Notes under the pieces: generated by a model
Database searches by the model: none
The model's input: the letters and a program-made list of their open reading frames with translations, nothing else
Told to the model about the DNA's origin: nothing
From: an uncultured Verrucomicrobiota bacterium
GTDB lineage: Bacteria > Verrucomicrobiota > Verrucomicrobiia > Palsa-1439
Length of the DNA: 64,000 bases
Reading direction: 5' to 3'
Assembly: GCA_964533295.1 (NCBI GenBank)
Contig: CAZHLM010000001.1
Location: 112,498-176,497, forward strand
Shown here: positions 16,244 through 62,108 of the stretch, piece after piece
Numbering within the stretch: the stretch's first letter is position 1
Layout of the letters: each line of letters starts with the position of its first letter
Translations under genes and position numbers: made by a program

Positions 16244-18925
<2,682 letters not shown>

Positions 18926-22424: not shown

Positions 22425-22667
22425 ATGAATTCAAGACAAGACTTCAGCCTGGGTCGCTGGCTGCGCTCGCGCACCGGGCTGGTGTTTCTCGTGTTCTCGG
22501 GCATCGCGGCGTTTTACCTGCTGACAGAACACACCGCCCACTTCTTCGGCATCCTGCCCTACGCGTTGCTCTTGCTGTGTCCGCTGCTGCATTTGTTCAT
22601 GCACAGCCGGCACGACGGTCTTAACGGTCATGCCGATCATCAGCCGCCCTCGGGGGAGAAGAAATGA
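22425..22667 (+). CDS. DUF2933-like small membrane protein
   Basis: 80 aa; CPLLHLFMHSRHDG motif typical of DUF2933; ATGA overlap with the downstream methyltransferase. Confidence 0.5.
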   Translation: MNSRQDFSLGRWLRSRTGLVFLVFSGIAAFYLLTEHTAHFFGILPYALLLLCPLLHLFMHSRHDGLNGHADHQPPSGEKK

Positions 22668-23320
22668 ACATCAATTCCCCCGCCTACGGGCTGTGGCCGC
22701 TCGTCTTCATAAACACGGCGGTCTTTATCGTCTTCGCCTTCAGCTTCACCAAGCCGCGCACCAGCCGAGACTGGCGCTCCTTCGGCGCGTTCTCGGCCTT
22801 CCTGGTGGCGCTGTTCACGGAGATGTACGGCTTCCCGCTGACGATTTACCTGCTCTCGGGCTGGCTGGGCAGCCGGATCCCGGGCCTGGACCTGCTCTCT
22901 CATAATGCCGGACACCTATGGCAGACACTCCTCGGCTGGAAGGGCGACCCGCACTTCACCCCCATCCATTGGTTGAGCGATGCGCTCATCGGCGGCGGGT
23001 TCGTCCTCATCGGTGCGGCCTGGGACGTGTTGTATAAGGCGCAGCGCGCACACCAACTGGCTATCGCCGGCCCGTATGCTTACCTGCGGCACCCCCAGTA
23101 CGTCGGCTTCATCGTGATCATGCTCGGCTTCCTCATCCAGTGGCCGACTATCACTACGCTGGTCATGTTTCCGATCCTGGTGTTCATGTATGTGCGGCTG
23201 GCGCGGCACGAGGAGCGCGAGGCATGGGCGGAGTTCGGCCAGGCGTATTCCGAGTATGCGGCCCGCACGCCGGCTTTCCTCCCGCGCCGCCGGCAGCCTG
23301 CCCCCGGAGGTGCTTTATGA
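22664..23320 (+). CDS. isoprenylcysteine carboxyl methyltransferase (ICMT)/phospholipid methyltransferase family membrane protein
   Basis: GPYAYLRHPQYVGFIV motif, multiple TM helices. Confidence 0.7.
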   Translation: MNINSPAYGLWPLVFINTAVFIVFAFSFTKPRTSRDWRSFGAFSAFLVALFTEMYGFPLTIYLLSGWLGSRIPGLDLLSHNAGHLWQTLLGWKGDPHFTPIHWLSDALIGGGFVLIGAAWDVLYKAQRAHQLAIAGPYAYLRHPQYVGFIVIMLGFLIQWPTITTLVMFPILVFMYVRLARHEEREAWAEFGQAYSEYAARTPAFLPRRRQPAPGGAL

Positions 23321-25130: not shown

Positions 25131-25457
25131 ATGAGCACCGACTGTCACGTTGAGCCGTTGTGGAAGACCGCCACCCCCGAAGAACTGCAGCAGGGGACGT
25201 CGGCGCTGCTGTCCGTCCAGGGCCTGGGCTGTCCGAACTGCGCCCTACGGGTCCGCAATAGCCTGCTCTCCGTCCGTGGCGTGGTGGAAGCCCACGTCGT
25301 CCATGAGATCGGCATCGCCGAGGTGGTGTTCAACCCCAACCTGACCAACGTCTTGGTCCTGATCGAGGCCGTCGCCCGGGCGGGGAACGACGGGCATCAC
25401 GCCTACAGCGCCCGGCTGATCGATGGACCGGGAGTGGAACGTGACCATCCGCGTTGA
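25131..25457 (+). CDS. HMA-like (ferredoxin-fold) metal-binding domain protein with atypical GCPNC site
   Basis: LSVQGLGCPNCALRVRNSLLSVRGVVEAHV resembles an HMA domain with a non-canonical metal site. Confidence 0.5.
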   Translation: MSTDCHVEPLWKTATPEELQQGTSALLSVQGLGCPNCALRVRNSLLSVRGVVEAHVVHEIGIAEVVFNPNLTNVLVLIEAVARAGNDGHHAYSARLIDGPGVERDHPR

Positions 25458-35939: not shown

Positions 35940-36180
35940 TAGACCCACCACACGAGTTTCCGAGGGTGGACACAATCCAGTTGCTGGATGATGTCTCGCG
36001 GTAACTGGACAAGCAGAGCGTGCGCGTGGCCGCTGTGTATGACGGTGCCAACTACCTGGGTTTGATCAGCTTGGAAGGTATCGCTGAAACGCTGGCTGGG
36101 ATGTTTGGGCGGCGCCGGAAGCGGCTTCGCCAGATGCCGGCCGGCACATCATCGCCCGTGCCCGGCAACGGAGTGCAGTG
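35940..36180 (+). pseudogene. CBS-domain gene remnant with in-frame TAA
   Basis: [42 protein letters not shown] reads as a CBS domain interrupted by a stop; no start or N-terminal part; adjacent to the IS256 element. Confidence 0.3.
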
Positions 36181-36182
36181 AG

Positions 36183-44706: not shown

Positions 44707-45408
44707 ATGGCCCTCTCGGTGCTCATCCTCGGCCCGACCCTGCTGTGTGAGGGCCTGCGCGCGCTCCTCGCCCAGGAGGAAGACCTGGCGGTGGGCATCG
44801 GGGTGGGCCATGATTTTGGGGATCGACCCCCGCCGGATGTGGTCGTCCTCTGCGCCGAGGCACCGGAGACCGTGCGCGACCTGCGCGCGCACTGGCCGCA
44901 GACCAGGCTGCTCGTCGTCGCCGACCTCTCGCCCTCAACCGCCGGCCGGTTGATGGACCTGGGTGTATTGGGCCTGTATCCGCTGATGACCGGACCGGAC
45001 GAATTGATCTGGGCGATCCGCCAGGTTGCGCAGGGCCGGCTCACCCTGCACCCGGCCGTGCTGCGCGCGATCGTGGCCCACCTGGCCAAGACCGAGCACG
45101 CCCCACCCCCACCGCCTCTTCCCCTGACAGCCCGCGAGCGCGACGTGCTGCGCTGCCTGGCGCAGGGCGCCAGCGACAAGGACATCGCCCAGCAGCTATA
45201 CCTCAGCGTCCGGACGGTCCAATCGCACCTGACCCACCTGTATTACAAGCTGGGCGTGCATTCGCGCACGGCCGCTGCCCTGGTCGCCCTCCGCGCCGGG
45301 TGGTTTGCGCAGGAAGCCGCCGGCGGCCCAGACGAATTGCGTAGTTCTACTGAGACGGCTCACGCCGCTCGGCGCTTGTCGCCGTCCGGCCCAGATGATA
45401 CCTTGTGA
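44707..45408 (+). CDS. LuxR-family transcriptional regulator with atypical receiver-like N-domain
   Basis: C-terminal LTARERDVLRCLAQGASDKDIAQQLYLSVRTVQSHL HTH; N-terminal domain lacks the canonical acidic pocket. Confidence 0.7.
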   Translation: MALSVLILGPTLLCEGLRALLAQEEDLAVGIGVGHDFGDRPPPDVVVLCAEAPETVRDLRAHWPQTRLLVVADLSPSTAGRLMDLGVLGLYPLMTGPDELIWAIRQVAQGRLTLHPAVLRAIVAHLAKTEHAPPPPPLPLTARERDVLRCLAQGASDKDIAQQLYLSVRTVQSHLTHLYYKLGVHSRTAAALVALRAGWFAQEAAGGPDELRSSTETAHAARRLSPSGPDDTL

Positions 45409-45975: not shown

Positions 45976-46599
45976 ATGAGACTTGCAATGACCAGGAGCC
46001 GGGTAGCCGTGTTGGGGACGTTGTCCGATCTGCACCAGCAATCCATCGCCTATGACCTGCGAATGCTGGCCCGGTTGGTCAGGCGGATCCAGCCGGACTT
46101 GCTGTGCGCTGAGATCGGGCGTGACCACTGGGAGACGAGCGACCTGGCCCGGATGCCGGTGGAGTACCGCGAGGCCCTCATCCCGGTCTGCAAGCGCAGC
46201 GACATCGTGCTCGTCCCGGTGGCCGGTGGCGAGGCCGAGGCATTCGTCGCTCGGCGCGGCGGGCGTTGGCGCGCTCTCCGCTCGGCCCTCGTCGGCCTGC
46301 TCAACTGGCAATTGCGGCTGATGCAGCGGCTGGCCGGCACTCCCGAGGCCATCAACTCCGGGGCGTTCGGCAGGCTCTGCACCCGGATGTGCGGCTGGAT
46401 CGCCTGGGCCTGCGGGCCGGAGGCCCAACGGGCGTGGGCAACGGCCAACGACCAGATTCTGCAAAACGTCCTGGCCGCTGTGCGGCGCGACCCCGGCCGC
46501 CGGGTGCTGGTGACCGTGGACTGCCGCCGCCGGCACCTGCTCGACCGCCGGCTGCGTGCGTTTGCCGAACTTGAAGTCGTCGCGTTTTATCAGCTGTGA
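45976..46599 (+). CDS. hypothetical protein (weak TraB/GumN-like pattern)
   Basis: RVAVLGTLSDLHQQS ... PDLLCAEIGRD and C-terminal RRVLVTVDCRRRHL; start uncertain. Confidence 0.3.
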   Translation: MRLAMTRSRVAVLGTLSDLHQQSIAYDLRMLARLVRRIQPDLLCAEIGRDHWETSDLARMPVEYREALIPVCKRSDIVLVPVAGGEAEAFVARRGGRWRALRSALVGLLNWQLRLMQRLAGTPEAINSGAFGRLCTRMCGWIAWACGPEAQRAWATANDQILQNVLAAVRRDPGRRVLVTVDCRRRHLLDRRLRAFAELEVVAFYQL

Positions 46600-47201: not shown

Positions 47202-47280
47202 ACAGCTCCGCGACAATTGCATAACCCATCTCTGGCGAGTCCGGCATAGCCGGGCTCGCGCTGTTCATTTGGTTGAGGCG

Positions 47281-47973
47281 ATGATTCCTCTGCTGTATGC
47301 ACTCATCACGTCGGCGGCCACACTGGCCGGCGGCGCGCTCCCCATGTATACCCGCCTGCGGCTCGTCGAACAGCGTTACATGGTCGCCTTCGCGGGCGGG
47401 GCGATGGTCGCCATCGCGCTGTTTGACCTGATCCCGGAGATGAAGGCTCACAACGCCGTGGCGCTCATGCTCGGTTTTTTCGCGATCTACCTGCTCGAGA
47501 AACTCGTAATGATCCACGCCTGCGGCGAGGCCGAATGTGAAACGCACGCGATGGGCTGGCCGGCGCTGATCGGCATCGCCACCGAAAGCCTGATAGACGG
47601 GTTGGCGATTGCAGTGGGCTTCGGGGTCGCCCCCTCACTGGGCCTGCTGATCGCTCTGGCAGTATTGGCGCACGAGTTGCCGCGCGGGCTGACGACGACC
47701 GTCATCATGCAGGAGGCAGGCTACAGCCGCCCTCGTGTTTGGGCAGCCCTGCTGGTGGACGCCGGCTTTGCACCGTTGGGCGTGCTGCTCTCCGGCCTGA
47801 TCCCGCCCTCGGTCTTCGAGCCGCTGATCGGCTTCACGGCGGGCGTGTTCCTGTACGTCGGCGCGAGCGACCTGCTGCCGGAGGCCCATCGGCGCTTTAA
47901 TCTCCGCGTAGTACTCGCGACCCTGGCCGGAGGCGGACTCATTCCGGTGCTGGGCAGCGTGCTGGGCCGGTGA
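47281..47973 (+). CDS. ZIP-family divalent metal transporter
   Basis: eight TM helices, LAHELPRGL and His-rich loop (HACGEAECETHAMG); ZupT-like. Confidence 0.7.
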   Translation: MIPLLYALITSAATLAGGALPMYTRLRLVEQRYMVAFAGGAMVAIALFDLIPEMKAHNAVALMLGFFAIYLLEKLVMIHACGEAECETHAMGWPALIGIATESLIDGLAIAVGFGVAPSLGLLIALAVLAHELPRGLTTTVIMQEAGYSRPRVWAALLVDAGFAPLGVLLSGLIPPSVFEPLIGFTAGVFLYVGASDLLPEAHRRFNLRVVLATLAGGGLIPVLGSVLGR

Positions 47974-48155
47974 GGAAAACGTGATGACCTATCTGAATGA
48001 GAACTCCCCAACCCAGGTATCGCGATGACTCACCTGCGCCGTATTCGTTTCCCGTTCATGCCCCTCACCCCGCCACGCCCCGGTGAACGGCTCGTCATCG
48101 ACCTAGAGAAACTGATCAAGGGCGTCCTGTTCCAATGCAGCACGTGCGGCAGCAA

Positions 48156-49470
48156 TCAGAACTGCCCGCCCAACAGCCGAAAGATCAGCAGGCCATTGAG
48201 AAGCAGGATCAGGCCAATGACGACAATGGCAAGCGCCGTGGTTTTGCGGCTGTTGACAAAGCCGCCCATCAATCGGCGGTCGGCGGTGAATATCAACAAC
48301 GGGACAGTCGCAAAAGGTAATTGAAAACTCAGGCTGGCCTGGCTGAGCACGAGGATGTTGAGCGGGTCTAGCCGGAAGGCTACGGCCCAGCACCGCCGGG
48401 ATCATGACCAGCAGCCGATAGATCAAGCGGCGCAGCCAAGGCCTCACCTGCACATGCAGGAAACCTTCCATCACGACCTGACCAGCCAGGGTAGCCGTTG
48501 TCGAGGAGGCGATGCCAGAGGCCAGCAACGCAATCGCAAAGGCAAATCCGGCCATCGTGCCCAGCAAGGGCACGAGCGTCTGGTACGCCTGCTCGAGGGA
48601 AGTCACCTGCAAGCCGTTGCGATAGAAGACCGCCGCGGCCATCACCAGGATCGCCCCGTTGACGAAGAAAGCGCCGTTGGGCGCGATGGCCGAATCGAGC
48701 ACGGCCAATCGGAAAACATTCCGCTTACGTGCGGGCGGGTCTTCCGGCTGCACACGTGAGTGGATCAAACGCGAATGCAGATAGAGGTTATGGGGCATCA
48801 CCGTGGCCCCCAGCATGCCGATGGCCACGTAAATGCTGTCCGAGTTGAGGCGCGGCACCACGGTGCTGTAAGCCAGCGCTCCCCACTCCGGCCGGGACAA
48901 CCAGATTTCTATCACATGAGCCACGCTCACGACCGCAATCAGGCTGAGGATGGCGTATTCCACCTTGCGAAAGCCATAGCGCTGGAGCCCCAGGATCAGA
49001 AATACGTCCAGGCCGGTGATCAGCGTGGCGGTGAGCAGGGGCAGTTTGAAGAGCAGGCTCAAGCCAATCGCCGATCCCAGGAACTCAGCCAGGTCGGTGG
49101 CCATCATGGCGATTTCCGCCGTGAGCCACAGGAAAATCGCCACTGGTTGAGGGAAGCGCTCGCGGCAGAGTTGGGCCAGGTCTTTGCCGGTGGCGATACC
49201 CAATTTCGCCGAGAGGCTCTGCAACAGGATCGCCACCAGATTGCTCAGCAGGAGCACCCAGAGCAGGCTGTAGCTGAAGCGTGCGCCGCCCTCCAAATCC
49301 GTAGCCCAGTTGCCGGGATCCATGTAACCCACGCTGACAATAAAGGCCGGCCCAGAAATGCTAGAATGCGGCGCAGGGTCCGGCCCGCCCCCTCGCGCCG
49401 AATGGCGCCAGCCAAGTCGGTCCAGCCGGGGATCAAGCGCGGCACCCGAGCGAGGGACCCCAATGACCAT
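48156..49470 (-). pseudogene. mntH: NRAMP-family Mn/Fe transporter with a frameshift near the 3' end
   Basis: GYMDPGNWATDLEGG signature; the conserved C-terminus VLSQASLSFQLPFATVPLLIFT is in a different frame (ORF 48156-48350) from the main ORF; shift near 48360-48380. Confidence 0.7.
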
Positions 49471-49756
49471 TCCCCTGGCGCTGCTCGATCAGCGACGATG
49501 CTGCTGGAGACCAGGGCGGTTTTCTGTGATGAGTTCGGCATTTTATTTCCGATAATCAAATTTATCATTTAGTTGTGCCTAAATTAACGGCTTGCCGCGA
49601 ACTCGTCAATACGCCATTCCGCGTGCTCGACGCGGCCCGGTCGCCTGCAACAGCGGCGGGTAGATCAACACGCCATTGTGCCTGTTTGAAAACCGGCTAA
49701 ACGGCGCTAACGCTATCAGGCTGTGCGGCTTACCATGGTAAGCGATTGGATCGGCT

Positions 49757-50170
49757 ATGCCCATCAGCCTGACGAAACTCAACTGTCCCAACTGCGGCGC
49801 GCCGCTGGAGTGGGACGGGACGTACGGCAAGCCCATCACCTGCCCGTACTGCGGCGCGCAGTTCATGCCCGGCCCGACCGAGGTGGACGATCTCTGGCTG
49901 TTCACCGACCCCGTGGCCCGCGCGCGCTTTGAGTACAACGGCACGCTGGACAAACTCGAGCACGACATCCGCTACGAAGTGCTGCGCGGCGGGACGTGGA
50001 GCGACCGCGACCGCGAATGCAAACACGAACTCGACCGGCTGGAACGCGACGGCATCATCCGCAAGCTGGCTTCCTTCTGGGCGCTCTCCCCTTTCCCGCC
50101 CATCTATCGCGCCCGGCAGGAGGGCGAACTGACCCTCGGCGGACACCGCTTCCCCTTTCGCAAAGGGTAG
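49757..50170 (+). CDS. uncharacterised family, paralog 1: N-terminal zinc ribbon plus conserved core (WLFTDPVAR ... DIRYEVLRGG ... SPFPPIYRARQEGELTLGG)
   Basis: CPNCG ... CPYCG ribbon; core shared with the two downstream paralogs; ends with TAG. Confidence 0.5.
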   Translation: MPISLTKLNCPNCGAPLEWDGTYGKPITCPYCGAQFMPGPTEVDDLWLFTDPVARARFEYNGTLDKLEHDIRYEVLRGGTWSDRDRECKHELDRLERDGIIRKLASFWALSPFPPIYRARQEGELTLGGHRFPFRKG

Positions 50171-50323
50171 GAGCTCGTCTGGGCCTGCCCGATGACGCGC
50201 GACCGCTTCGAACTCGACGATCCCATCCTCATCGGCGATTTCGCCTCCGAGCGCGTGCAGCGCCTGTGCGGCGAGATGGCCGACGCGATGATGGGCCGGA
50301 TGAAAGGTATGGAGGTCTGACCG

Positions 50324-50805
50324 ATGTCCGATCTGCTCAAAGCACTGTTCGGCATCCCCAATATGTTTCGCGTACTGACACCACCCCTGACGGCCCCGAC
50401 CCTGACCCGAACGACGTCTGGGCATTCACCGACCCGGACGCTCGCGATGAGTACACCCGCCAGGGTCGATTGAAGCGCCTCGAACGCGACATCCACTACG
50501 AGGTCATGCGCGGCGGCCCCTGGCAGCCCGAGGAGCTGGAGTACAAGTCTGAGATCCGCCAGTTGCTGCGCGAAGGCGCCATCGCCGACAAGGGCACCTA
50601 CTGGTTCCGCAGCCCGCACCCCACGATCTACCGCGCCCAGCGCGAGGGCGTGCTCTCGGTGGCCGGGAGAATCTATTGCTTCGGCGTGGGCGACGACCTG
50701 GTCTTTCAATGCCGCATGGAACGCGATGAGGCCGTGGATAACCCAGGCGCCATGTTGTGCGGCAATTGGTCTGATGCAATGAGGGACGTGCGCCGGCGAA
50801 TGTAG
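50324..50805 (+). pseudogene. uncharacterised family, paralog 2; N-terminal frame does not match core frame (frameshift or non-ATG start)
   Basis: ATG at 50324 gives MSDLLKALF (resembles paralog 3 MYDVLRSQL) in frame 2, but the conserved core VWAFTDPDAR ... DIHYEVMRGG ... SPHPTIYRAQREGVLSVAG is in frame 1, which has no ATG after 50170. Confidence 0.4.
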
Positions 50806-51200
50806 TGTGCGCCCGTCACAAGGACGCCACATTAGCGTTCAATGAGCTACACCTTGTACGCGCCAAATGGCGCTTGTGTGCCGGCAGGAGTTGCAGTACC
50901 GTGAAAGTGTAGCCATTGCAGCCTCGACGATGCCCTTCCCTTTACGCGGAACCATCGACAACATTCACGCGGCATAGGTCTGGCGGCGTGGGTGGAGTGG
51001 CTGCCTAAGCCGGACCGAAGGCCAGGGCGAGCCGAACTTTCGCCGCTACCCTACCCTGGTAGGGTCTCTCCCAAAAAACGGCTTCACTGTAGAGCATCGT
51101 CGGCGACGTCAGGGCCTCGACCGGACGGGCCCGAACGCAGTTTGTGTTCGGGCCCGTCCATTATTACCAGTGACAGTGGTCAGAAGACGAGGCGTTCAGG

Positions 51201-51776
51201 ATGTACGACGTCCTCAGGTCCCAACTCAGCGACCAGCTTCGCTTGCCCAGTGACGCCCCGAGCGTGAATTGCGAGCTGAGACGGAACAATCTCTGGCTGT
51301 TTACCGACCCGGTCGCCCGGCACCTTTACGCGAAACGGAAACGGCTGGGCCAGCTGAAGCACGACATTCAGGCCCACGTCATGCGTAATCACTGCTGGGC
51401 CGCTGAAGAGCTGGCGCTTGCGCGTGAGATCCTCCGCCTGGTGCACACCGGCGTGCTTTGGCCCAAGGGCACTTTCGGCTACCTGAGCCCACACCCGCCG
51501 GTATACCGCGCCGTGCGCGAGGACGTGCTGACGATCGACGGTCAGAAATATCACTTCCGCGCCGGTAACGATCTCGTCTTCGTGCCCTGGCTGGCGCGGG
51601 CGTCGTCCCCCGGTCTTTCTGGACCCGTGAAAATTGGTCGATTGCAGACGGTCACGGACCTTTGCCTGTGCTGCGAAGCATTCCCGTTCGTGAGCACACT
51701 CTGCTCAAGAGCCATCGCTCACCTGCAGAAGACAGTCCCCGACAACGCGCTTTCACGCCTCACCCGTCATCCATAA
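51201..51776 (+). CDS. uncharacterised family, paralog 3 with extended Cys-containing C-terminus
   Basis: LWLFTDPVAR ... DIQAHVMRN ... SPHPPVYRAVREDVLTIDG core; C-terminal LCLCCEAFPFVSTLC. Confidence 0.5.
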   Translation: MYDVLRSQLSDQLRLPSDAPSVNCELRRNNLWLFTDPVARHLYAKRKRLGQLKHDIQAHVMRNHCWAAEELALAREILRLVHTGVLWPKGTFGYLSPHPPVYRAVREDVLTIDGQKYHFRAGNDLVFVPWLARASSPGLSGPVKIGRLQTVTDLCLCCEAFPFVSTLCSRAIAHLQKTVPDNALSRLTRHP

Positions 51777-51944
51777 CCAGATCGCCGGAATTGTCCGCGC
51801 ACAATCAGTTGCGCCGATGAGGGAGTCAGTGTAGACTAAAAATCTTACAGCGTGTAAGTTTATGGCGCGCCTGCATTGTCACTATCTTCCGGACGCGTCG
51901 TTCGATTGAAGTAGACGATTTGCACGATCTGCGGAACTGGGGCC

Positions 51945-53807
51945 ATGCCACCGTTCACAATTGTCCCGCTGATTTTGCTTTTCCCGATCCTTGGCCTTCT
52001 CATCAATCTTACTCTTGGCAGCCGGCGAGACGAGAAGTGGATAGGGAGGGTGGCCTGCAGCGCCGTCGCAGCGTCGTTCGCCGTGGCGGTGACGATGCTG
52101 GACACCCTGCTGCGCGAGCCGCAGGGCGGCGAGGTCATGCTCTGGGAGTGGTTGAGGATCGGAACGTTGACCATCCCGGTGACCCTGAAAGTAGACGCGC
52201 TCGCCACGACGATGAGCCTGGTGGTGACCGGCGTCGGAACGCTTATCCACATCTATGCCATCGGGTACATGGGGGGCGATCCCCGCTTCCGGAGCTTCTT
52301 CATCTATCTTAATCTGTTTGTTGCGGCGATGCTGGTGCTGGTGCTGGCCGACAATTATCTGCTGCTCTTCATCGGCTGGGAGCTGGTGGGGCTGTGTTCG
52401 TACTTACTCATCGGTTTCTGGTTCGAGGACCTGAACAACGTGGTGGCGGCGAGAAAAGCGTTCATCGTCAATCGCGTGGGTGATGTCGCTTTTCTGTTGG
52501 GCCTCATTCTGATCTTCTGGACCTTCGATAGCCTGCGTTACGCCGAAGTGTTCTCCAATGCCAAGGCGACATTCCGCGCGGGCGCACCCGTGGTTACGGC
52601 CATCACGTTGCTCCTGTTCATGGGTGTCACGGGAAAGAGCGCCCAGATCCCGCTGTTCATCTGGCTGCCGGATGCGATGGCGGGGCCGACTCCGGTCTCG
52701 GCCCTCATCCATGCGGCCACGATGGTGACCGCTGGGGTGTACCTGATCGCGCGCAGCCAGGCGCTCTTCGACCTGGCGCCACTGACTCAATCCATCATTG
52801 CCTGGACCGGCGGTGTGACCGCACTGTTCGCCGCCACGATCGCCATCGCGCAGTGGGATATGAAGAAGGTGATGGCCTACTCAACCATCAGCCAGCTCGG
52901 CTACATGATCGCCGCAGTTGGGCTGGGCGGCTACATCGCCGGGCTCTTTCACCTGATCATCCATGCCTTCTTCAAGGCGCTGCTCTTTCTAAGCGCAGGT
53001 TCGGTGATGCACGGCTGTGGCAACGAGGGCGACATGCGCCGCCTCGGGGGGTTGCGCCGGGCCATGCCAATCACGTTCGCCACCTTCATCATCGGCGGCC
53101 TGGGGTTGGCAGGCGTGCCGGCCTTCGCCGGCTTCTGGAGCAAAGACGGGATCATCGCCGAAGCGTCCAGGAAGGACATGGGTGTTTTCGTGCTCCTGCT
53201 GGTCGCGACAGGCGTTACGGCCTTCTACATCTTCCGGCAACTATATCTGGTATTTGCGGGTGAACAACGCAGCCGTGCCTATCACCCCCACGAAAGCCCA
53301 CGCGTGATGACGGGGCCGCTCATCGCCCTGGCCATACTGGTCGGCGTTGGCGGGATCGTGAACGCGCCGCCTATCCACCTGCTCACGCGTTTTCTCGGCG
53401 GTGAGGCGCCGCCTTTTGAAATGAACGTTGCGGCGGCCTCAGTGGGGCTCACGGCGGCAAGTTGGGCCGCGGCCTGGGCGCTGTATGGCCGCCGGCCACT
53501 ACTCGCCAGGGAGGCCGATCCGTTGGGGCGTGTCCTCGGCCGGCTGTACAGGGTGCTGGAGCGGAAGTACTTCGTGGATGAACTCTATGGGGTCTGGATT
53601 GTGCGGCCCTATCAAGCCTTGACCCAAGTCTTCGGAGCGCTGGACCGGCGGCTCGTCGACCCGGGCATTGACCGGACGGCGGCTTTGTCGGGTGACCTCG
53701 CCAGGTGGTTGAGCCTGGCGCAGTCCGGCTACGTGCGCCGATATGCACTCTGGTTCGTGTTCGGCGCCGTGCTGGTGCTGGGCTACTTCCTGGTGGCCTC
53801 ACGCTGA
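51945..53807 (+). CDS. nuoL: NuoL/ND5-type antiporter-like subunit
   Basis: about 16 TM helices, WEWL ... LFIGWELVGLCSYLLIGFWF, conserved charged TM residues, long C-terminal helix region. Confidence 0.85.
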   Translation: MPPFTIVPLILLFPILGLLINLTLGSRRDEKWIGRVACSAVAASFAVAVTMLDTLLREPQGGEVMLWEWLRIGTLTIPVTLKVDALATTMSLVVTGVGTLIHIYAIGYMGGDPRFRSFFIYLNLFVAAMLVLVLADNYLLLFIGWELVGLCSYLLIGFWFEDLNNVVAARKAFIVNRVGDVAFLLGLILIFWTFDSLRYAEVFSNAKATFRAGAPVVTAITLLLFMGVTGKSAQIPLFIWLPDAMAGPTPVSALIHAATMVTAGVYLIARSQALFDLAPLTQSIIAWTGGVTALFAATIAIAQWDMKKVMAYSTISQLGYMIAAVGLGGYIAGLFHLIIHAFFKALLFLSAGSVMHGCGNEGDMRRLGGLRRAMPITFATFIIGGLGLAGVPAFAGFWSKDGIIAEASRKDMGVFVLLLVATGVTAFYIFRQLYLVFAGEQRSRAYHPHESPRVMTGPLIALAILVGVGGIVNAPPIHLLTRFLGGEAPPFEMNVAAASVGLTAASWAAAWALYGRRPLLAREADPLGRVLGRLYRVLERKYFVDELYGVWIVRPYQALTQVFGALDRRLVDPGIDRTAALSGDLARWLSLAQSGYVRRYALWFVFGAVLVLGYFLVASR

Positions 53808-53820: not shown

Positions 53821-55893
53821 ATGAACCTGCATTCCCTGGTCTGGCTTATCCCGCTCCCTCCTTTTCTGGCCTTCGCGCTCATCATCCTGTTCACCTATCG
53901 CTGGCGGGCATTCAGCCACACGCTGGCCATTGGGATGATGGGCGTCTCGTTTGTGCTCGCTCAGGTTGTCTTCTGGAGCGGCGTGCTCAGCGGGCGGCTG
54001 GCTGAAGAACCGGTCGGCTCATCGTTGGCCTGGCTACCCTTTCGCCAGTTTGAGACCTGGCTTCGCGTTGGGGTGTTGGTGGACCCGCTCGCGGCCGTGA
54101 TGCTCTTCATGGTCACACTGACCTGCCTGCTGATTTTCATCTACAGCACGGAATATATGCGCGGCGACCCGCGCTACAGCCGCTTCTTCGCCTATCTCTC
54201 GCTCTTCGCCACCGGCATGCTCGGCCTGGTGGTCGCGGATAACTTGCTGGCGTTGTTTGTGTTCTGGGAAATCATGGGCCTGTGCTCGTACCTGCTCATC
54301 TGCTTCTGGTTTGAGAAGCCGTCCGCCTGCCGCGCGGCGATGAAAGCATTCATGACCACCCGCATCGGCGACGTGTTGATGCTCCTCGGCATCGTGAATC
54401 TGTACAGCCAGACCGGGCGGCTGGATTTTGAGACACTGTTGAGCTCTTCGACTCTGGCGATGTTGGGCGCGACGCCGTCAGTGATCCAGGGTCTCTCGGT
54501 GGCCGGGCTGGCTGGGCTGCTGATCTTCGCCGGGACGGTCGGCAAATCCGCGCAGTTCCCGCTGCACGTCTGGCTGCCGGATGCCATGGAAGGCCCGACG
54601 CCCGTGAGCGCCATGATCCACGCCGCCACCATGGTCTCGGCCGGTGTCTATCTGGTCATCCGCGTTCTGCCCCTGCTGACGGCCGGGGGAGCACCCCTTC
54701 CGGCGATGGCTCTCATTGGCGGGTTCTCGGCCTTCTTCGCCGCGACCATCGCGCTCGCGCAGGACGATGTCAAGCGCGTGATGGCGTACTCGACCATCAG
54801 CCAGCTCGCATACATGATCGCCGCCCTGGGCGTGGGTGCGTATTTCGCTGCCCTCTTCCACCTGCTGATGCACGCCGTCTTCAAGGCTCTGCTATTCCTT
54901 AGCGCCGGATCGGTCATCCACGGCGTCGAACATGGGGCGCACGTGACGTATCAACATCTGAATCCCCAGGACATGCTCAATATGGGCGGCCTGCGGCGGC
55001 GCATGCCGCGCACGTTCGTCGCGTTCATGGCTGGGGGACTCGCCCTCACGGGAATCCCGCCCTTTGCCGGCTTCTGGAGCAAGGACGCGATTCTCGGTGG
55101 GGCATTTGAAGCTTACCGCGTGTCCGGCGTGGCCTCGTGGGGGTTCTACGTCTGGCTGATGCTTTCGGCCTCGGTCTTCCTGACCGCGCTGTACGCCGGG
55201 CGGCAGATGTTCCTCGTGTTCGGCGGCGAGCCGCGGACTTCGGCAGCCGAACACGCCCACGAGACAGGCTGGGCCATCAGCCTGCCGCTGCTGGTGCTGG
55301 CGGCCTTCGCGGCGCTGGCCGGGTTCGTGGGCGTTCCGGAAGAGTTTGCGGTGCTGGGCCCGCTGCTCGGCCACAACTGGCTGCTGCGGTTTGTGAGCGA
55401 GCACTATGGCGAGGCGCGACTGAGCATTGGCGTGATGGGCTTCTCGGTGGCGCTCTCGTTGACCGGCTGGGGTGTGGCCTGGCTGCTGTACGGACGCCGG
55501 CCGTTGAAAGCCGGACAGCCGGACCCGCTCATCGCTGCGCTCGGCGGCCTCCACACACTGCTCAAGAACAAATACTACGTCGACGAGCTGTATACGGCCG
55601 TCATCGTACAGCCCGTCGTGGCCCTGGCGGGTTGGGTGTCTGACTCGGTTGACCGTGGTGCGATTGATGGACTCCTGCACACCGTCGCGCGCCTCAACCG
55701 GCGGTGGAGCGAGCTCAACCGTTTGTTTGACCGATACATCGTGAACGGGTCCAGTGACCTGCTGGGCGAAGGCGCCAAGCGTTTGGGCCGCGAATTGCGC
55801 CTTATCCAGACGGGACGCGTGCAGCACTATCTGGCCTTCTCACTGCTGATCGTCATCGTGCTGGGCGCCATCCTGCTGGTGCTCGTCCGTTGA
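53821..55893 (+). CDS. nuoL: second NuoL/ND5-type antiporter-like subunit (paralog)
   Basis: LFVFWEIMGLCSYLLICFWF, SAQFPLHVWLPDAMEGPTPVSAMIHAATMV; 690 aa. Confidence 0.85.
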   Translation: MNLHSLVWLIPLPPFLAFALIILFTYRWRAFSHTLAIGMMGVSFVLAQVVFWSGVLSGRLAEEPVGSSLAWLPFRQFETWLRVGVLVDPLAAVMLFMVTLTCLLIFIYSTEYMRGDPRYSRFFAYLSLFATGMLGLVVADNLLALFVFWEIMGLCSYLLICFWFEKPSACRAAMKAFMTTRIGDVLMLLGIVNLYSQTGRLDFETLLSSSTLAMLGATPSVIQGLSVAGLAGLLIFAGTVGKSAQFPLHVWLPDAMEGPTPVSAMIHAATMVSAGVYLVIRVLPLLTAGGAPLPAMALIGGFSAFFAATIALAQDDVKRVMAYSTISQLAYMIAALGVGAYFAALFHLLMHAVFKALLFLSAGSVIHGVEHGAHVTYQHLNPQDMLNMGGLRRRMPRTFVAFMAGGLALTGIPPFAGFWSKDAILGGAFEAYRVSGVASWGFYVWLMLSASVFLTALYAGRQMFLVFGGEPRTSAAEHAHETGWAISLPLLVLAAFAALAGFVGVPEEFAVLGPLLGHNWLLRFVSEHYGEARLSIGVMGFSVALSLTGWGVAWLLYGRRPLKAGQPDPLIAALGGLHTLLKNKYYVDELYTAVIVQPVVALAGWVSDSVDRGAIDGLLHTVARLNRRWSELNRLFDRYIVNGSSDLLGEGAKRLGRELRLIQTGRVQHYLAFSLLIVIVLGAILLVLVR

Positions 55894-55911: not shown

Positions 55912-57435
55912 ATGACGGACTTCGCCTCCAGTAATCTGCTCAGCCTGATGGTCTTCTCGCCCCTGATCGGCGCAGCCCTCGTCGTGGTGCTGCCCGACGG
56001 CGAGAAGGGTGTTATCCGCTGGATTGCCTTTCTCACCACACTGGTGCCGCTGGGCTTGGCCGGCTGGGCCTGGGCCCGCTTCCAGCCAGGACAGCCGGGT
56101 TACCAGTTCGAGCAGTTTACCCCCTGGTACACCGTGCTCGGGATCAGCTATCACGTAGGCGTGGATGGGATCAGTCTGCCGTTGGTGCTGCTGACAGCGC
56201 TGCTCGCGCCGCTTGCAGCATTGATCTCCTTCAGCATCTCCGAGCGTGTGAAGATGTACTTCGTGCTGTTCCTCGTCCTCGAGACCGCGATGCTAGGCAC
56301 CTTCGTCGCGCTCGACCTGATCATCTTTTTTATCTTCTTTGAGTTCACGCTGCTGCCGATGATGTTCCTGATCATGTTGTGGGGCGGCGAGAACCGTGAC
56401 TATGCCAGCATGAAGTTCATGCTATACACCATGGCCGGCAGCCTGGCGATGCTGCTGGCCTTCCAGGTGATCGGGCTCAACCTGCGCTCCTTTGACCTGG
56501 TGAATGCGGCCCGCGCCTGGCCGGCCTTCGACCGCGGGCTATTCGGCCTGAGTGCGGAGACGGCGAAGGCGATTACCTTCTGGGGCGTCTTCCTCGGCCT
56601 GGCCATCAAAGTTCCCATCTGGCCGTTTCACACCTGGCTGCCCGACGCGCACACCGAGGCCCCTACGGCGGGCAGCATGCTCCTGGCCGGAGTCCTGCTC
56701 AAACTGGGCGGGTATGGTTTCCTGCGCATCCTGCTGCCGCTCTTTCCCGAACAGTCCGCCCGGTTCGCCCCGCTTATCGCGCTGTTGGCATTGGCCGCCA
56801 TTGTATTCGGCGCGCTGGCCGCGCTGGCGCAGACGGACTTCAAGCGGCTGGTGGCGTATTCATCAGTGAATCACATGGGCCTGATCGTGCTCGGGATCGC
56901 CGTCGTGGCCGCCGCCTATGGCCGCCCCGATCTGACTGACTCCGCCGTGGTCTCTGGCAACGGCGCGGTCTTGCAGATGTTCAATCACGGCCTCACCTCG
57001 GCAGCCCTGTTCCTGCTCGTCGGCGTGATATATGAACGCGCGCACACGCGGGACTTGCGCGAATTCGGCGGACTGGGCGTCATCGTCCCGGCGTATGGCG
57101 GCATCCTATTGTTTTCGGCGCTCGCCAGCTTGGGCCTGCCCGGGCTGAACGGGTTCGTGGGTGAATTCCTGCTCTTCCGGGGCGCGTGGCCGGTGTTCAC
57201 CCTCGTCACGGCGCTGGCAACGCTAGGCCTGCTCTTCACGGGCGCCTATTTGTTGTGGATGATCCAGCGGGTGCTGCTCGGCCCGCTGAATCCTCGCCGG
57301 GCACAGCTGGACGAGATCGGCTGGCGTGAGACGCTGGCCGTGACGCCCCTGTTGGCTCTGATGGTGCTCACCGGCCTGTGGCCGAGCTGGATATTGGCGA
57401 CGATTAATGAGACGGTGAGCAGACTGTTCGGGTAA
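55912..57435 (+). CDS. nuoM: NuoM/ND4-type antiporter-like subunit
   Basis: 507 aa, 14 TM helices, WPFHTWLPDAHTEAPTAGSMLLAGV motif; GGGAGG ribosome-binding site. Confidence 0.85.
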   Translation: MTDFASSNLLSLMVFSPLIGAALVVVLPDGEKGVIRWIAFLTTLVPLGLAGWAWARFQPGQPGYQFEQFTPWYTVLGISYHVGVDGISLPLVLLTALLAPLAALISFSISERVKMYFVLFLVLETAMLGTFVALDLIIFFIFFEFTLLPMMFLIMLWGGENRDYASMKFMLYTMAGSLAMLLAFQVIGLNLRSFDLVNAARAWPAFDRGLFGLSAETAKAITFWGVFLGLAIKVPIWPFHTWLPDAHTEAPTAGSMLLAGVLLKLGGYGFLRILLPLFPEQSARFAPLIALLALAAIVFGALAALAQTDFKRLVAYSSVNHMGLIVLGIAVVAAAYGRPDLTDSAVVSGNGAVLQMFNHGLTSAALFLLVGVIYERAHTRDLREFGGLGVIVPAYGGILLFSALASLGLPGLNGFVGEFLLFRGAWPVFTLVTALATLGLLFTGAYLLWMIQRVLLGPLNPRRAQLDEIGWRETLAVTPLLALMVLTGLWPSWILATINETVSRLFG

Positions 57436-58149: not shown

Positions 58150-59724
58150 TCACGGCTCGAACGTCACCTCGGCAATCATCCCGGGCTTGAGCGCCAGGTC
58201 AGGGTTCTCCAGCCCGATGACCACGGCATACACCAGCCGCGAGCGGTCCTCCTTCGTCTGCACGTTGGTGGGCGTGAACTCGGCCTCGTCGGCCATCCGC
58301 AACACCGTGCCCGCAAACACGCGATCCGGGTAAGCGTCCACGCGCACACGGGCCGCCTGGCCGGGCGTCACCAGCCCGAAGCGCTCCTCGGGCAGGTAGA
58401 CGATCAGCTCCAATGAACTCAGCCGCCCGATCTCCAGGAGTGTCCCACCGGGCAGGGCGGTCTGCCCGACCTCGGCGTTGCGGCTGAGCACCACGCCATC
58501 CCACGGTGCTGTCAGGCTGAGTTTCTCGAGTTGGAGATCCAGCGCGTCTAGCTGGGCCTGGGCCGCATCCACCTGCGCCTGCGCGGCGTCCATCACTTCG
58601 GCGCGCGCGCCATTCCGGAGCGAGGCGAGATTGGCCGCCGCCGTGTCGCGCAGCGCCGTCGCCGCGTCTATCTGCGCCAGCAGGGTCTCCACCGAGAGCG
58701 GCACACTGGCAACACCGGCTCCGCCCGCACGCTGCCCAACCAAACTGAACGTGGCCAGATGAGATTGCGCCCGCAGGACTTCGGCCCAGGCGGCATCCAG
58801 GCGAGGCGCAGACGTGCCGGAAGTCAGCGTATCATAGGCGGCCTTGGCCGTCTCCGCCTGGTCCTGCGCATCGTTGAGCGTTGCTTCGGCGGCGTCAAGC
58901 GCCTCCGGGGTCGTGCGCGCGTCGTCCTTCAGGCTTTCAAGCCGGGCCTGAGCCTGCGCTGCATTGGCCTGGGCCACCTCCCAGTTCAAGCGCGCCAGCT
59001 CAAGTTGTGAATAGTATGGTTGCGACTCATCCTTGGCCGCTCCGTAGGCCTGTCTGGCTGCGTCCGCTGCCGCTCGGGCATCTGCGACAGCGGCCACGGC
59101 CGCGGCGATGACGGAGGCCGGGTTGCGCGTATCCTGTGCCAGTTCATCGCGCCGGGCCATCGCTTCCGACAGGTTGCCCTCCGCCGTCGTCAGCGCTGCG
59201 CGCACTTTTTCGATTTGATCGGCAGCGAAGCTGGCCGTCAGGCCGTAGTATTCGGCCCGGGCCAGCTCGAGATGGGTGCGCATGGCGGCCAGATCCTCTG
59301 GGCGCGTCCCGTTCGTTGCGGCCTCGAGCGCCGCCTGAGCCATGCGGAGGTTAGCCTGGGCCCCCGCCAGTTGTGCCTCGGCCGCGTTGATCTGATCGCC
59401 GGTGGCGCCGGCTTTCAACAGGGCCAGGTTCGCCTGTGCTGCCCGCAGCGCGGCTTCGGCCTGAGCGCGCTGAGTGCTGAGCAACGAGTCATCCAGTCTC
59501 GCCAGCGGCTGGCCGGCCGTGACCTGCTGCCCCTCCTCAACCAGAACTTCGACGACCTTGCCGCCGGTTTCCGGGGCGACGCCAACCTGGCGCGCTTCGA
59601 TCACACCGGTGGCTTCCAGCGGCGGCGCCTCTGCTGCCGCGCCGGCCTGTGACAGCCACCACCCGCCGCCTCCAGCGGCCACAAGGACAAGCACCACCGC
59701 GATGATGAGGTTTCTGTGTTTCAT
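58150..59724 (-). CDS. HlyD-family periplasmic adaptor (membrane fusion protein) with long Ala/Gln coiled coil
   Basis: N-terminal TM anchor, beta-barrel/lipoyl-like segments flanking about 300 aa of coiled coil; YbhG-like. Confidence 0.8.
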   Translation of the reverse strand: MKHRNLIIAVVLVLVAAGGGGWWLSQAGAAAEAPPLEATGVIEARQVGVAPETGGKVVEVLVEEGQQVTAGQPLARLDDSLLSTQRAQAEAALRAAQANLALLKAGATGDQINAAEAQLAGAQANLRMAQAALEAATNGTRPEDLAAMRTHLELARAEYYGLTASFAADQIEKVRAALTTAEGNLSEAMARRDELAQDTRNPASVIAAAVAAVADARAAADAARQAYGAAKDESQPYYSQLELARLNWEVAQANAAQAQARLESLKDDARTTPEALDAAEATLNDAQDQAETAKAAYDTLTSGTSAPRLDAAWAEVLRAQSHLATFSLVGQRAGGAGVASVPLSVETLLAQIDAATALRDTAAANLASLRNGARAEVMDAAQAQVDAAQAQLDALDLQLEKLSLTAPWDGVVLSRNAEVGQTALPGGTLLEIGRLSSLELIVYLPEERFGLVTPGQAARVRVDAYPDRVFAGTVLRMADEAEFTPTNVQTKEDRSRLVYAVVIGLENPDLALKPGMIAEVTFEP

Positions 59725-59736
59725 GGGTTGCTCCTT

Positions 59737-60879
59737 CTACATCAAACTGCGTCTGAACCGCGCCAGCCCGATCCCCAGGATGGCGGCGGTGAAGACTGCC
59801 AGCGCTGCGGCGTGGGGCCAGACCACACTCAGACCGGCACCCTTGAGGAACAGGCTGAGGGCCAATGACAGGTAGTGCCGCATCGGGCTGACGAACGAAA
59901 TCCATTGCAGCCAGTCGGGCATCGCCGTCACCGGCGTGATCGTGCCGGAAAGGAACATCATGGGAAACAGGACGAAGAACGCGATCAACAACGCTTGCAG
60001 CAGGTTCCGGGCGACGGTCGCAATCCAGATGCCGATGCCGGCGCTGGCGAGAAAGGCGAGCGTGGAGAGCGCGAAGAACAGCGCCAATGCAGCAGGCGCG
60101 TCGCCATGCGGGGCCACACCGAAGACCACAAAGCCCAGCGTTACGCCGATCCCCAGCCCCGCAATCTCCAGCGCCACCATCGGGATTACCTTGGCCAGGG
60201 TGAGCTCCAGGGGGCGGATCGGGGTGACCATCAACTGCTCCAGCGTGCCGGCCTCCTTCTCGCGCACGATGGCCGCCGCGGCCAGCAACGTGCCCAGCAT
60301 CACGACGGACAGCGCCACCATCGCCACCATGTTGAAATGGATGTACCGCATCTCCGGCAGGTACCAGGCCCGAACGTTATTGACGATGGACGGCAGACCA
60401 TTGACCACGGCCATCCCGGATCTGTTCAGCCGCTCTACTTCAATCCCCGTTGAGTAGCGCCGCACGATTTGGGTCACATAACCCAGGGAGAGCAGCGCCG
60501 GGTTCGACTGCGTGCCGTCGGCCAGGACCTGAATGCTCACCGGCCGGCCCCCGGCCAGATCCCGGCCGAAGTCGGGTGGGATGATCAGGCCGAGCGCGGC
60601 CTGGCCAGAATCGAGCAGCCGGTCAAGTTCAGCCTCGTCCACCGGATAGAAATCCACCTTGAACGAGTCGGCCTGGCGGAAGCGCTCGACCAGGGCGCGG
60701 CTGGCGGGCGAGTTGTCCCGGTCGAGCACCGCGGTGGGGGTATGCTTCACGTCCATCGTCAGCGCCCAACCGCACAGCACGATCTCGGCGAACGAATACA
60801 ACACCAGGAACACGATCGGGAGGTCGCGCAGGGTCTGGGTGAATTCCTTCCGAATAAGCGAACGCAGCCGGCCGTTCAT
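59737..60879 (-). CDS. ABC-2 family transporter permease
   Basis: N-terminal TM, large periplasmic loop, five C-terminal TM helices; YbhR/YbhS-like. Confidence 0.8.
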   Translation of the reverse strand: MNGRLRSLIRKEFTQTLRDLPIVFLVLYSFAEIVLCGWALTMDVKHTPTAVLDRDNSPASRALVERFRQADSFKVDFYPVDEAELDRLLDSGQAALGLIIPPDFGRDLAGGRPVSIQVLADGTQSNPALLSLGYVTQIVRRYSTGIEVERLNRSGMAVVNGLPSIVNNVRAWYLPEMRYIHFNMVAMVALSVVMLGTLLAAAAIVREKEAGTLEQLMVTPIRPLELTLAKVIPMVALEIAGLGIGVTLGFVVFGVAPHGDAPAALALFFALSTLAFLASAGIGIWIATVARNLLQALLIAFFVLFPMMFLSGTITPVTAMPDWLQWISFVSPMRHYLSLALSLFLKGAGLSVVWPHAAALAVFTAAILGIGLARFRRSLM

Positions 60880-60880
60880 A

Positions 60881-62017
60881 TCAGCCAATCCGTTTCTTGA
60901 AGCGTAAGGCGGAAATCGCGACCAGCCCCGCCGCGTAGAGCGCCAGAAAGCCCATGGCCGGGGCGATGGTCTCAAGTCCTTGTCCCTTGAGCGCGATGGC
61001 GCGCGAGATATCAATGAAGTAACGCGCTGGGAAGACATTGGCATAAGCCTGCATCGGCGTTGGCATGGTGTGCACCGGGAAGATGAAGCCGGAGAATAGC
61101 ATCGCGGGCATGATGGTTAGCACGATGGCGAGCAGCATCGCCGCGACCTGGGTGCGGGCGAGGGTCGAGACGAGCAGGCCAATGCCGACAGTGCAAAGCA
61201 CGTACAACGTCGCGGCCATGAGGAATAGCGGCAGGCTGCCGCGGAACGGGACGCCGAACCAGAACACGCCGCCCGTCAGTACCAACAGCATTTCGAGGAA
61301 GGCAATCACGCCATAAGGGATCAGTTTGCCGAGCACCAATTCGACCGGGCGAATGGGTGAGACGTAGACTTGCTGGATCGAGCCGCGTTCCTTCTCACGC
61401 ACGATGGCCAGCGCCGAAAGCAGCGGTGGGAAGGCCATCAGGATCACGCCGAACAGGCCGGGCACAGTCGAATTCACGCTCTCCAGCGTCGGGTTGTAGC
61501 GCACGCGGGCATTGACCGCGACCGGCCCGGATTGATCCAGCGTTTGCCCCGTCCGGCTTTCGACAAACTCGGCCAGCACGCGCCCGCCGTAGGCGGCGTT
61601 GATGGCGTTGACGTAGGCTTGCGTCACCTGGGCAAAGGGCGTGTAGGAACCGTCGAGCAGAGTCTGGGCCTCGGCAGTCCGGCCTGCGCTGAGGGCGGCG
61701 CCAAAACCGGGCGGGATCACCAGGGCCACATCCGCCGTGTCGCGGCCCAGCGCCTCCGCAATAGCGTCGTAATCGTTCACCGCGCCGGCGATGCGGAAGT
61801 AGCCGGAGTTGACGAACGCCTGCGCGTACGCGCGGCTGGCGGCGGTGCGGTCGAGATCGAGCAAGATCATCTGAATGTTCTTGACATCCGTGTTCACGCC
61901 GTAGGCGAACAGGAAGAGCATGATGAGCGGCAGCACCAGCGCGATGCCGAGCGTGTACGGGTCGCGCAGGATTTCGCGGCTTTCCTTGCGCAGGACGGCG
62001 AGGGTACGGGTAAACAT
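60881..62017 (-). CDS. ABC-2 family transporter permease
   Basis: same architecture as its neighbour; start at MFTRTLAVLRKE; the upstream extension in the ORF track is encoded by the repeat element. Confidence 0.8.
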   Translation of the reverse strand: MFTRTLAVLRKESREILRDPYTLGIALVLPLIMLFLFAYGVNTDVKNIQMILLDLDRTAASRAYAQAFVNSGYFRIAGAVNDYDAIAEALGRDTADVALVIPPGFGAALSAGRTAEAQTLLDGSYTPFAQVTQAYVNAINAAYGGRVLAEFVESRTGQTLDQSGPVAVNARVRYNPTLESVNSTVPGLFGVILMAFPPLLSALAIVREKERGSIQQVYVSPIRPVELVLGKLIPYGVIAFLEMLLVLTGGVFWFGVPFRGSLPLFLMAATLYVLCTVGIGLLVSTLARTQVAAMLLAIVLTIMPAMLFSGFIFPVHTMPTPMQAYANVFPARYFIDISRAIALKGQGLETIAPAMGFLALYAAGLVAISALRFKKRIG

Positions 62018-62018
62018 A

Positions 62019-62108
62019 GTGGTCAGTGGACAGCGAGCAGTGATCAGTGCGCAGTGATCAGTGGGTAGTCTCGAAGGGATGCTTCGCAGTGAGCAGAGTT
62101 TGATCACT
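62019..62108. repeat. 90-bp palindromic element (terminal inverted repeats GTGGTCAGTG / CACTGACCAC) at the ABC ATPase/permease junction
   Basis: arms cagtgatcagtgggtagtc and gactacccactgaccactg are reverse complements; encodes the last 17 aa of the ATPase and abuts the permease start. Confidence 0.6.

Follow-up and report, generated by a model that had tools for sequence, protein, structure and literature searches.

A decaying tandem triplet from a small, apparently undescribed family of paired proteins found mostly in Chloroflexota

The family and the described systems closest to it

The described systems that come closest to the proteins treated here are the small copper-related proteins of the CopZ/HMA (PF00403), YHS (PF04945)/TRASH and PCYCGC (PF13798) families, proteins with Met-rich Cu(I) motifs, the HMBD domain (PF19335), the Ter-dependent systems, and the accessory factors of complex I and Mrp antiporters. 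These were compared with three tandem genes on the plus strand (paralogs 1 to 3, 49757-51776) of a 64-kb stretch of DNA, called the window below, to the whole of which all positions refer; the three encode an A-type, a B-type and a C-type protein, respectively, of one family and lie directly upstream of nuoL, nuoL and nuoM genes. CopZ/HMA, YHS/TRASH and PCYCGC proteins share with the family a niche beside P1B ATPases, cupredoxins and ArsR/SmtB regulators, as well as small size, the lack of a signal peptide and conserved Cys motifs, and YHS is fused to the domain in one member. However, neither sequence nor fold similarity to them was found. The family core consists of ca. 130 aa of helices and sheet, unlike the ferredoxin-like HMA fold and the small YHS/TRASH knuckle, its motif is C-x-M ... 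C-x-x-M-x-x-x-M instead of CxxC, and the family forms an obligatory A/B pair. Membership in HMA/CopZ was rejected, the topology differing from that of HMA, and none of the three window proteins contained a YHS/TRASH domain, which occurred only as a separate fused domain in the family member P0136.

Met-rich motifs binding Cu(I) or Ag(I) are known from CusF, CopC/PcoC, SilE/PcoE, CueO and the 'Mets' of Ctr1, which are periplasmic or extracellular proteins. The tails of the family are likewise Met-rich with an i, i+3, i+4 spacing (LCGEMSGAMKGMGRRM), whereas the fold is unrelated, two invariant Cys residues are added and the proteins are apparently cytoplasmic. HMBD (CPMH...CPxCGM) was matched weakly by 24 of 109 family members (best E 4.9e-05), and A-type proteins contain 'CPM'. 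Membership was rejected since the one match that was located (15.1 vs 23.6 bits) fell at residues 22-41, in the zinc ribbon, and the C-terminal WACPMTRD region had no HMBD match; the resemblance thus appears to be a generic zinc-ribbon likeness. Ter-dependent systems combine TerB/TerY-type (VWA) stress sensing with Ser/Thr kinases, and fusions of the domain with VWA, with a TerB-like N-terminal region and with a Ser/Thr kinase occur in other lineages, but the matches to TerB and DUF533 were sub-threshold (E 1e-3 to 5e-4), the window copies are unfused, and no Ter genes lie nearby. As for the accessory factors of complex I and Mrp, the family adjoins NuoL/NuoM in the window and NuoJ/NuoK in the closest relatives, but it shows no homology to such factors and the association is limited to one narrow clade.

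A reading of the window made earlier from the sequence alone (the sequence-only reading) had described the genes as a tandem triplet of paralogs, and this was borne out. Open reading frames (ORFs) were located for paralog 1 up to a TAG codon (49757-50170, 137 aa), for the core frame of paralog 2 (49996-50805, with the core in its 3' two-thirds) and for paralog 3 (51201-51776, 191 aa). The alignment of the three gave 33-45% identity with 30-36 invariant columns, and tblastn between them gave E values of 1e-18 to 1e-34. This similarity is far beyond chance and indicates that the three are true paralogues. The motifs WxFTDPxAR, DIxYEVxRGGxW and SPxPPxYRAxREGxL, by which the shared core had been defined, were all found in each of them, while the conserved unit proved to measure ca. 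130-140 aa and not ca. 100 aa as had been estimated.

In agreement with the earlier statement that the core could not be assigned to a named family, the core of the three window proteins had no match in Pfam-A, NCBIfam or PADLOC. When 109 family members were scanned singly, with the isolated C-terminal halves taken to E ≤10, the core remained without a match; the scans of these members and of separate N- and C-terminal halves yielded no more than zinc-ribbon matches below threshold. A word-indexed search with a profile of the three paralogs retrieved 431 proteins, and all the taxon-named ones came from Chloroflexi or Anaerolineales metagenome-assembled genomes (MAGs) and bear the label 'hypothetical' or 'zinc ribbon domain-containing protein'. 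An exhaustive hidden Markov model search of 1.84 billion cluster representatives yielded 92 clusters only. A scan of one genome per species across 185,579 species yielded 32 loci, which were overwhelmingly from Anaerolineales, Ardenticatenales and unclassified Chloroflexota, with a few in other bins including two Spirochaete MAGs and one archaeal MAG. Literature searches returned no description of the A/B/C family. These results indicate that the A-, B- and C-type proteins make up a small undescribed family, mostly of Chloroflexota (Anaerolineales, Ardenticatenales), and thus a candidate new domain family that could replace the present labels. The main hosts, Anaerolineae-type Chloroflexota, abound in sediments, groundwater, hot springs and wastewater; experimental work on their metal biology is scarce.

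The A-type consists of a zinc ribbon followed by the core, and the B-type of an MSDLLKxLFG peptide, an acidic Pro-rich linker and the core, while the C-type, to which paralog 3 belongs, is rarer, divergent and only sometimes present. About 31 of 37 non-redundant loci have an A-type gene and, after a gap of ca. 7-140 nt on the same strand, a B-type gene. This arrangement has the signature of a co-translated (co-transcribed) pair and appears to be the normal form of the family. The core motifs W-x-F-T-D-P-x-A-[RK], D-I-[RH]-x-E-V-M-R and S-P-x-P-x-[VI]-Y-R-A occur in all three window copies. A- and B-types carry in addition C-x-M-x-R-D and L-C-x-x-M-x-x-A-M(-x-G), followed by a Met-rich tail, and the residues C130, M132, R134, D135, C158, M161 and M165 were invariant in 49 of 49 B-type and 14 of 14 A-type sequences. 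In the C-type (n = 9), the first Cys was replaced by Pro in eight sequences and by Ser in one, and the Met positions were mostly occupied by Leu, Ala or Val. Within the window, both Cys/Met motifs are encoded in paralog 1, past its stop codon, and paralog 3 has the C-type variants.

In the exhaustive search the domain was also found fused to other domains, namely to a Ser/Thr kinase (P0123), to VWA (P0154, P0158), to a preceding helical region of no known kind (P0124-P0127, P0130), and, in P0145, P0150, P0151 and P0155, to a preceding TerB-like region (sub-threshold) and, through a Met-rich linker, to VWA. In VWA fusions the Met-rich tail grows to runs such as MANAMMGMEEMGKMDMGEMKEM. P0136 is a fusion of a C-type domain with YHS and is followed by an HMA gene; the contigs carrying the kinase fusion P0123 and the VWA fusion P0150 are short, and their neighbourhoods were uninformative. 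The fusions to Ser/Thr kinase, VWA and YHS suggest that the domain is a ligand-sensing input. The core was confidently predicted to form a compact alpha/beta domain in which three helices pack on a five- to six-stranded sheet. Comparison of this fold against the PDB detected no relative among solved structures, and PDB sequences searched with a profile contained no match better than E = 1. The distant member P0138 (196 aa), obtained from the exhaustive search, has a lipoprotein-type signal (…LALAGC…) before the domain, so that the domain may also occur outside the cytoplasm in some lineages.

Gene neighbourhood and proposed function

The neighbourhood of the family was surveyed by tblastn with single-sequence queries; this census, the counts of which are lower bounds, covered 30 non-redundant loci that measure 8 kb or more. 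P1B ATPases were found in 20 of the 30 loci, YHS in 14 and HMA in nine; ICMT/PEMT, UbiE- and CMAS-type methyltransferases and DUF5676 recurred too. Gene tables of seven further loci contained P1B ATPases with HMA and YHS domains, small YHS and HMA proteins, cupredoxins, PCYCGC, ArsR/SmtB (HTH_5), Zip, DUF5676, ICMT/PEMT and UbiE/CMAS methyltransferases, as well as MacB and ABC2 exporters with CusB/YknX-like adaptors. A similar setting was seen outside Chloroflexota, in a Spirochaetaceae MAG (L050, the same as L043; 6574-12595), where a Cu-type P1B ATPase (cupredoxin, HMA and YHS) is followed by two family proteins, one of 411 aa (a ca. 230-aa N-terminal region of no known kind and the domain) and the other of 446 aa (the domain and VWA), which represent an elaborated A/B pair. 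The suggestion of the sequence-only reading that this could be a metal-related family is thus well supported, as the pair lies in most loci among genes for P1B ATPases, YHS, HMA, cupredoxin, PCYCGC, ArsR/SmtB, ZIP and ICMT, and a YHS fusion exists.

Based on the motif invariance, the pairing and this gene context, we propose with moderate confidence that A and B together make up a module of heavy-metal islands which works in the cytoplasm and binds or senses a thiophilic metal, probably Cu(I). The A- and B-type proteins would assemble into a cytoplasmic hetero-oligomer, and this complex would bind the metal, most likely Cu(I), via its invariant Cys and Met residues. Its task in heavy-metal homeostasis islands would then be to sense or buffer the metal or to hand it over, and the same domain would act as a ligand-sensing input when fused to kinase or VWA outputs. 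Paired Cys residues together with Met-rich stretches are typical ligands of Cu(I) and Ag(I). YHS, for its part, is presented as a probable copper-sensor module in PMC4626032. If the proposal is correct, the family would represent an undescribed metal-binding or metal-sensing domain whose fold is not represented among solved structures, an added component of bacterial copper and heavy-metal homeostasis, and a candidate for the domain that provides kinase and VWA signalling with its input. It would not surprise specialists, and it answers no long-standing question.

Several points weigh against this proposal. Metal binding by A and B is a prediction from motif invariance and gene context, and the choice of Cu(I) is a guess from the gene neighbours. 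Periplasmic proteins are the more usual setting of Met-rich Cu(I) motifs, whereas A and B have no signal peptide. The C-type and the distant members P0135 and P0152 do not have the Cys/Met motifs, which rules out metal binding as a function common to every protein of this fold. About one quarter of the loci have no recognisable metal gene in the available sequence (e.g. L017, L038 and L039), L039 having a MerC-like gene, and the neighbourhood counts are raw lower bounds from single-query tblastn, uncorrected for genomic background.

The architecture itself, a zinc ribbon joined to a three-helix subdomain, would also suit a transcriptional or signalling regulator in which the ribbon and the helical subdomain contact DNA or a partner and the Cys and Met residues are structural or redox-sensing. 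The fusions to Ser/Thr kinase and VWA are typical signalling contexts, and GerE- and ArsR-type regulators recur nearby, which indicates that the islands are regulated units. We regard this explanation as unlikely, and somewhat less so than an enzymatic function. The latter would have the domain act on a metal- or stress-related substrate, with the invariant D, E and R residues as the active site. Many invariant charged residues (D51, R55, E68, D70, R72, E74, R77, R118, R148 and D149 in P0001 numbering) would agree with such a role, and the genes that recur beside the pair include some for methyltransferases, an FAD oxidoreductase (DAO-like), an alpha/beta hydrolase and a beta-CASP nuclease. 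However, the searches revealed no resemblance to an enzyme family or fold. Small size, obligatory pairing and a terminal position in fusion proteins are features seen more often in binding or sensor domains, and we consider an enzyme quite unlikely.

The metal-module proposal could be extended to a new class of cytoplasmic sensors of Cu(I) or other thiophilic metals, with a new fold, with lineage-specific readouts including the kinase, VWA and TerB-like fusions, and with translational coupling to orphan NuoJ-NuoK(-NuoL) genes in one Anaerolineales clade. We consider this full version improbable. If it were true, the coupling would mean that complex-I-type antiporter modules had been recruited into metal islands as a metal-regulated ion-translocating device.

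The nuo genes adjoining the triplet

Downstream of paralog 3, two NuoL genes (51945-53807 and ca. 53821-55893) and a NuoM gene (55912-57435) follow on the plus strand, all of them full length. The intergenic gap before the first is short, as had been stated, and measures 168 nt (51777-51944) instead of 169. Both L copies passed the NCBIfam NuoL equivalog (711 and 606 bits vs a cut-off of 556) and the M copy passed the NuoM subfamily model, while no NuoJ or NuoK homologue was found anywhere in the window. This proximity had led to the suggestion that the paralogs could act as regulators or soluble partners of the adjoining antiporter-like membrane subunits, an idea taken here to include other accessory roles and roles in assembly.

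Membrane-arm genes do follow the pair in four loci of the closest clade (A-type at least 83% identical). In L015 (JACQED010000026), the order is A, a C remnant, B, NuoJ and NuoK (Nuo genes at 1869-2677), with the stop codon of B overlapping the start of NuoJ by 4 nt. L016 and L017 have A, B, abhydrolase, NuoJ, NuoK and beta-CASP (NuoJ-NuoK at 4024-4826 and 11983-12791, respectively), and L019 has Zip, C, A, B, hydrolase, NuoJ, NuoK and NuoL (Nuo genes at 12080-14844) followed by GerE, its NuoK passing an NCBIfam NuoK cut-off. The corresponding order in the window is A, B, C, NuoL, NuoL and NuoM. However, the link was absent from all loci with an A-type less than 83% identical and from four loci of the same close clade (L009, L011, L018 and L020), in which no Nuo gene stands beside the pair. 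In the neighbourhood search by which the sequence-only reading had intended to probe co-occurrence, NuoL/M-like genes appeared, besides the window, in one of 30 loci (L019), so that the outcome favoured the metal genes and not NuoL/M. The gene tables from other genomes contained no Proton_antipo_M or Oxidored_q2/q3, and the Spirochaete, archaeal and other distant members adjoin P1B ATPases. The Nuo genes themselves vary between loci (J/K vs L/L/M), as do the intervening genes, and Pfam and NCBIfam scans revealed no homology of the paralogs to any subunit or assembly factor of complex I or Mrp. Furthermore, A and B are inactivated in the window, whereas the three Nuo ORFs are intact. A partnership with NuoL/M is thus very unlikely, and since the link is confined to one narrow clade, shared descent and synteny are a sufficient explanation. 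We regard the linkage as clade-specific synteny that offers no evidence that the family serves NuoL/M.

In L019 as in the window, the Nuo pieces are flanked by metal-island genes on both sides. Fragments of the complex I membrane arm embedded in metal islands were observed in the window and in related MAGs.

Lesions in the window locus and its surroundings

Paralog 1 extends over 49757-50320 and comprises an N-terminal C4 zinc ribbon, the family core and a Cys/Met tail; it is classed as a pseudogene or, at best, as the source of a truncated 137-aa product. The CPNCG...CPYCG ribbon named by the sequence-only reading is present (C10-x2-C13 ... C29-x2-C32, 49784-49852) and is common to A-type members. 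Its matches to many zinc-ribbon models of Pfam, among them Zn_ribbon_3 (PF13248) and DZR (PF12773), were sub-threshold (best 21.3-25.9 bits, cut-off 27), as were those in NCBIfam, and an AlphaFold2 model had short paired strands at residues 8-9, 16-17, 27-28 and 35-36. The N-terminus is accordingly described as a zinc ribbon by pattern, of no specific family. The ORF of paralog 1 was confirmed, but the gene is not complete at 137 aa, as an in-frame TAG that the sequence-only reading had overlooked (codon 138, 50168-50170) interrupts it before the C-x-M-x-R-D motif and the Met-rich tail. Beyond this TAG, homology to the C-termini of paralogs 2 and 3 continues over 50 codons (ELVWACPMTRDRFELDDPILIGDFASERVQRLCGEMADAMMGRMKGMEV) up to a TGA stop codon at 50318-50320. 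The untranslated remainder (50186-50317) includes the WACPMTRD motif (50186-50203, C144 to D149) and LCGEMADAMMGRMKGMEV (50264-50317). When read through the TAG, paralog 1 has 187 codons and shares 98% identity with P0001 (187 aa) and 87% with P0003, and full-length A-type homologues measure 181-189 aa. The contig encoding P0001 (L014), which is 98% identical to the window over 942 nt, has CAG (Gln) at the site, so that the TAG corresponds to a single C to T change; in the remaining A-type homologues this codon specifies Q, E, D or H.

Paralog 2 (50324-50805, plus strand) is a B-type pseudogene. A frameshift near its start had been noticed earlier and is real; its start, however, is the ATG at 50324 (MSDLLKALFG), its stop codon is the TAG at 50803-50805, and 12 codons near the C-terminus are missing as well. 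The frame is lost after 50354 (about codon 11), and the core continues in the next frame. In blastn against L014, the cause was seen to be a 1-nt deletion at 50354-50355, where L014 has GGCA[C]TCCCC: the C after 50354 is missing, L014 reading GGCACTCCCC and the window GGCATCCCC. The 12-codon internal deletion lies near 50749-50757 and removes PVLIARLQxxxx, and LCGEM is replaced by LCGNW, by which M161, a Met in 49 of 49 B-types, is lost; C-R-M-E-R-D is retained. After repair of the frame, paralog 2 aligned end to end with P0046 (172 aa) at 69% identity with a single 12-residue gap. Its homologues are ca. 168-176 aa long and likewise begin with MSDLLKALFG.

Four contigs, assembled independently and stemming from four samples, matched the window at 100% identity over stretches of up to 4.1 kb, and gene callers had predicted fragments of 137, 42, 49 and 111 aa on them. 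The presence of the same lesions in four independent assemblies indicates that they are real and dominant in the population. The adjoining Nramp (MntH-like) gene (48103-49470, minus strand) is frameshifted near its 3' end: its main ORF covers positions 1-308 of the 357 of the Pfam Nramp profile, and a 64-aa ORF in another frame (48156-48350, minus strand) covers positions 324-357. The sequence at this frameshift is also common to the four independent assemblies, and three disrupted genes (Nramp, paralog 1 and paralog 2) thus lie inside ca. 2.7 kb. Relative to L014, the nearest relative, the lesions of paralogs 1 and 2 are derived, and both genes are best described as recent pseudogenes, only paralog 3 being intact. 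The module is decaying in this genome, with A carrying a nonsense codon, B a frameshift, a deletion and a lost Met, and Nramp a frameshift. With both copies and Nramp recently inactivated, the locus shows a large metal island part of which is in the process of decaying, not a working NuoL/M accessory module. That the three genes are functional and the lesions reflect recoding (read-through of TAG or pyrrolysine insertion, programmed frameshifting) or assembly errors is extremely unlikely: the frames past the lesions are nearly undamaged (98% identity to L014 after the TAG), but at the two sites L014 reads CAG and stays in frame, a stop codon or shift is likewise missing from all other homologues, the identity of the four assemblies speaks against random error, paralog 2 also lacks 12 conserved codons and an invariant Met, and Nramp is frameshifted too. 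Since the TAG and shift sites are not conserved in relatives, they are not conserved recoding signals, and pyrrolysine, read-through and programmed frameshifting were rejected on the ground that the sites are unconserved in L014.

Paralog 3 (51201-51776, plus strand), the intact C-type copy of 191 aa, matches P0002 exactly. Where A and B have C-x-M, it has P-W-L; it is without their Met-rich tail and ends in CLCCEAFPFVSTLC. The Cys-bearing tail pointed out by the sequence-only reading is real and common to the closest homologues P0075 and P0133, which are also 191 aa long. Another C-type copy occurs in L019 and a remnant in L015, where a C-type-like stretch (951-1343) between A and B contains no plus-strand ORF of at least 80 aa and so looks like the relic of a C-type gene; the third paralog thus seems to have been gained and lost repeatedly.

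A perfect 17-bp, G+C-rich hairpin (GGACGGGCCCGAAC...GTTCGGGCCCGTCC, -41 kcal/mol, z = -5.85) is located at 51123-51159, 42 nt upstream of the start codon of paralog 3. Nothing like it occurs elsewhere in the window, and no T run comes after it; the hairpin could terminate the A-B unit or have a regulatory function. No riboswitch or other RNA was detected when the whole window, as well as 47900-52100 by itself, was scanned against Rfam.

The surroundings of the triplet, from ca. 7000 to 62000, look like one large heavy-metal homeostasis island. P1B ATPases are encoded at 7076-9793, 16196-18925 and 36105-38708, at least four YHS segments lie near 16250, 20883, 24505 and 28648, and an ICMT/PEMT gene (22664-23320) and an HMA gene (25140-25421) are present. 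A ZIP-family metal transporter gene (47269-47973, plus strand) was recognised by Pfam Zip on an identical contig and by a sub-threshold ZupT match in NCBIfam, and an ABC2 exporter with a YknX/CusB-like adaptor occupies 58150-63989. Genes for a GerE/LuxR-type regulator and a 196-aa protein are located at 44707-45408 and 46009-46599. Both recur in family loci (L009, L012, L018, L019 and L023-L026), the regulator in seven of the 30 loci of the census and the 196-aa protein, which has no Pfam or NCBIfam match, in eight; in L018 and L019, where their positions were compared, the two genes adjoin each other. Together they may be another conserved, uncharacterised component of these islands.

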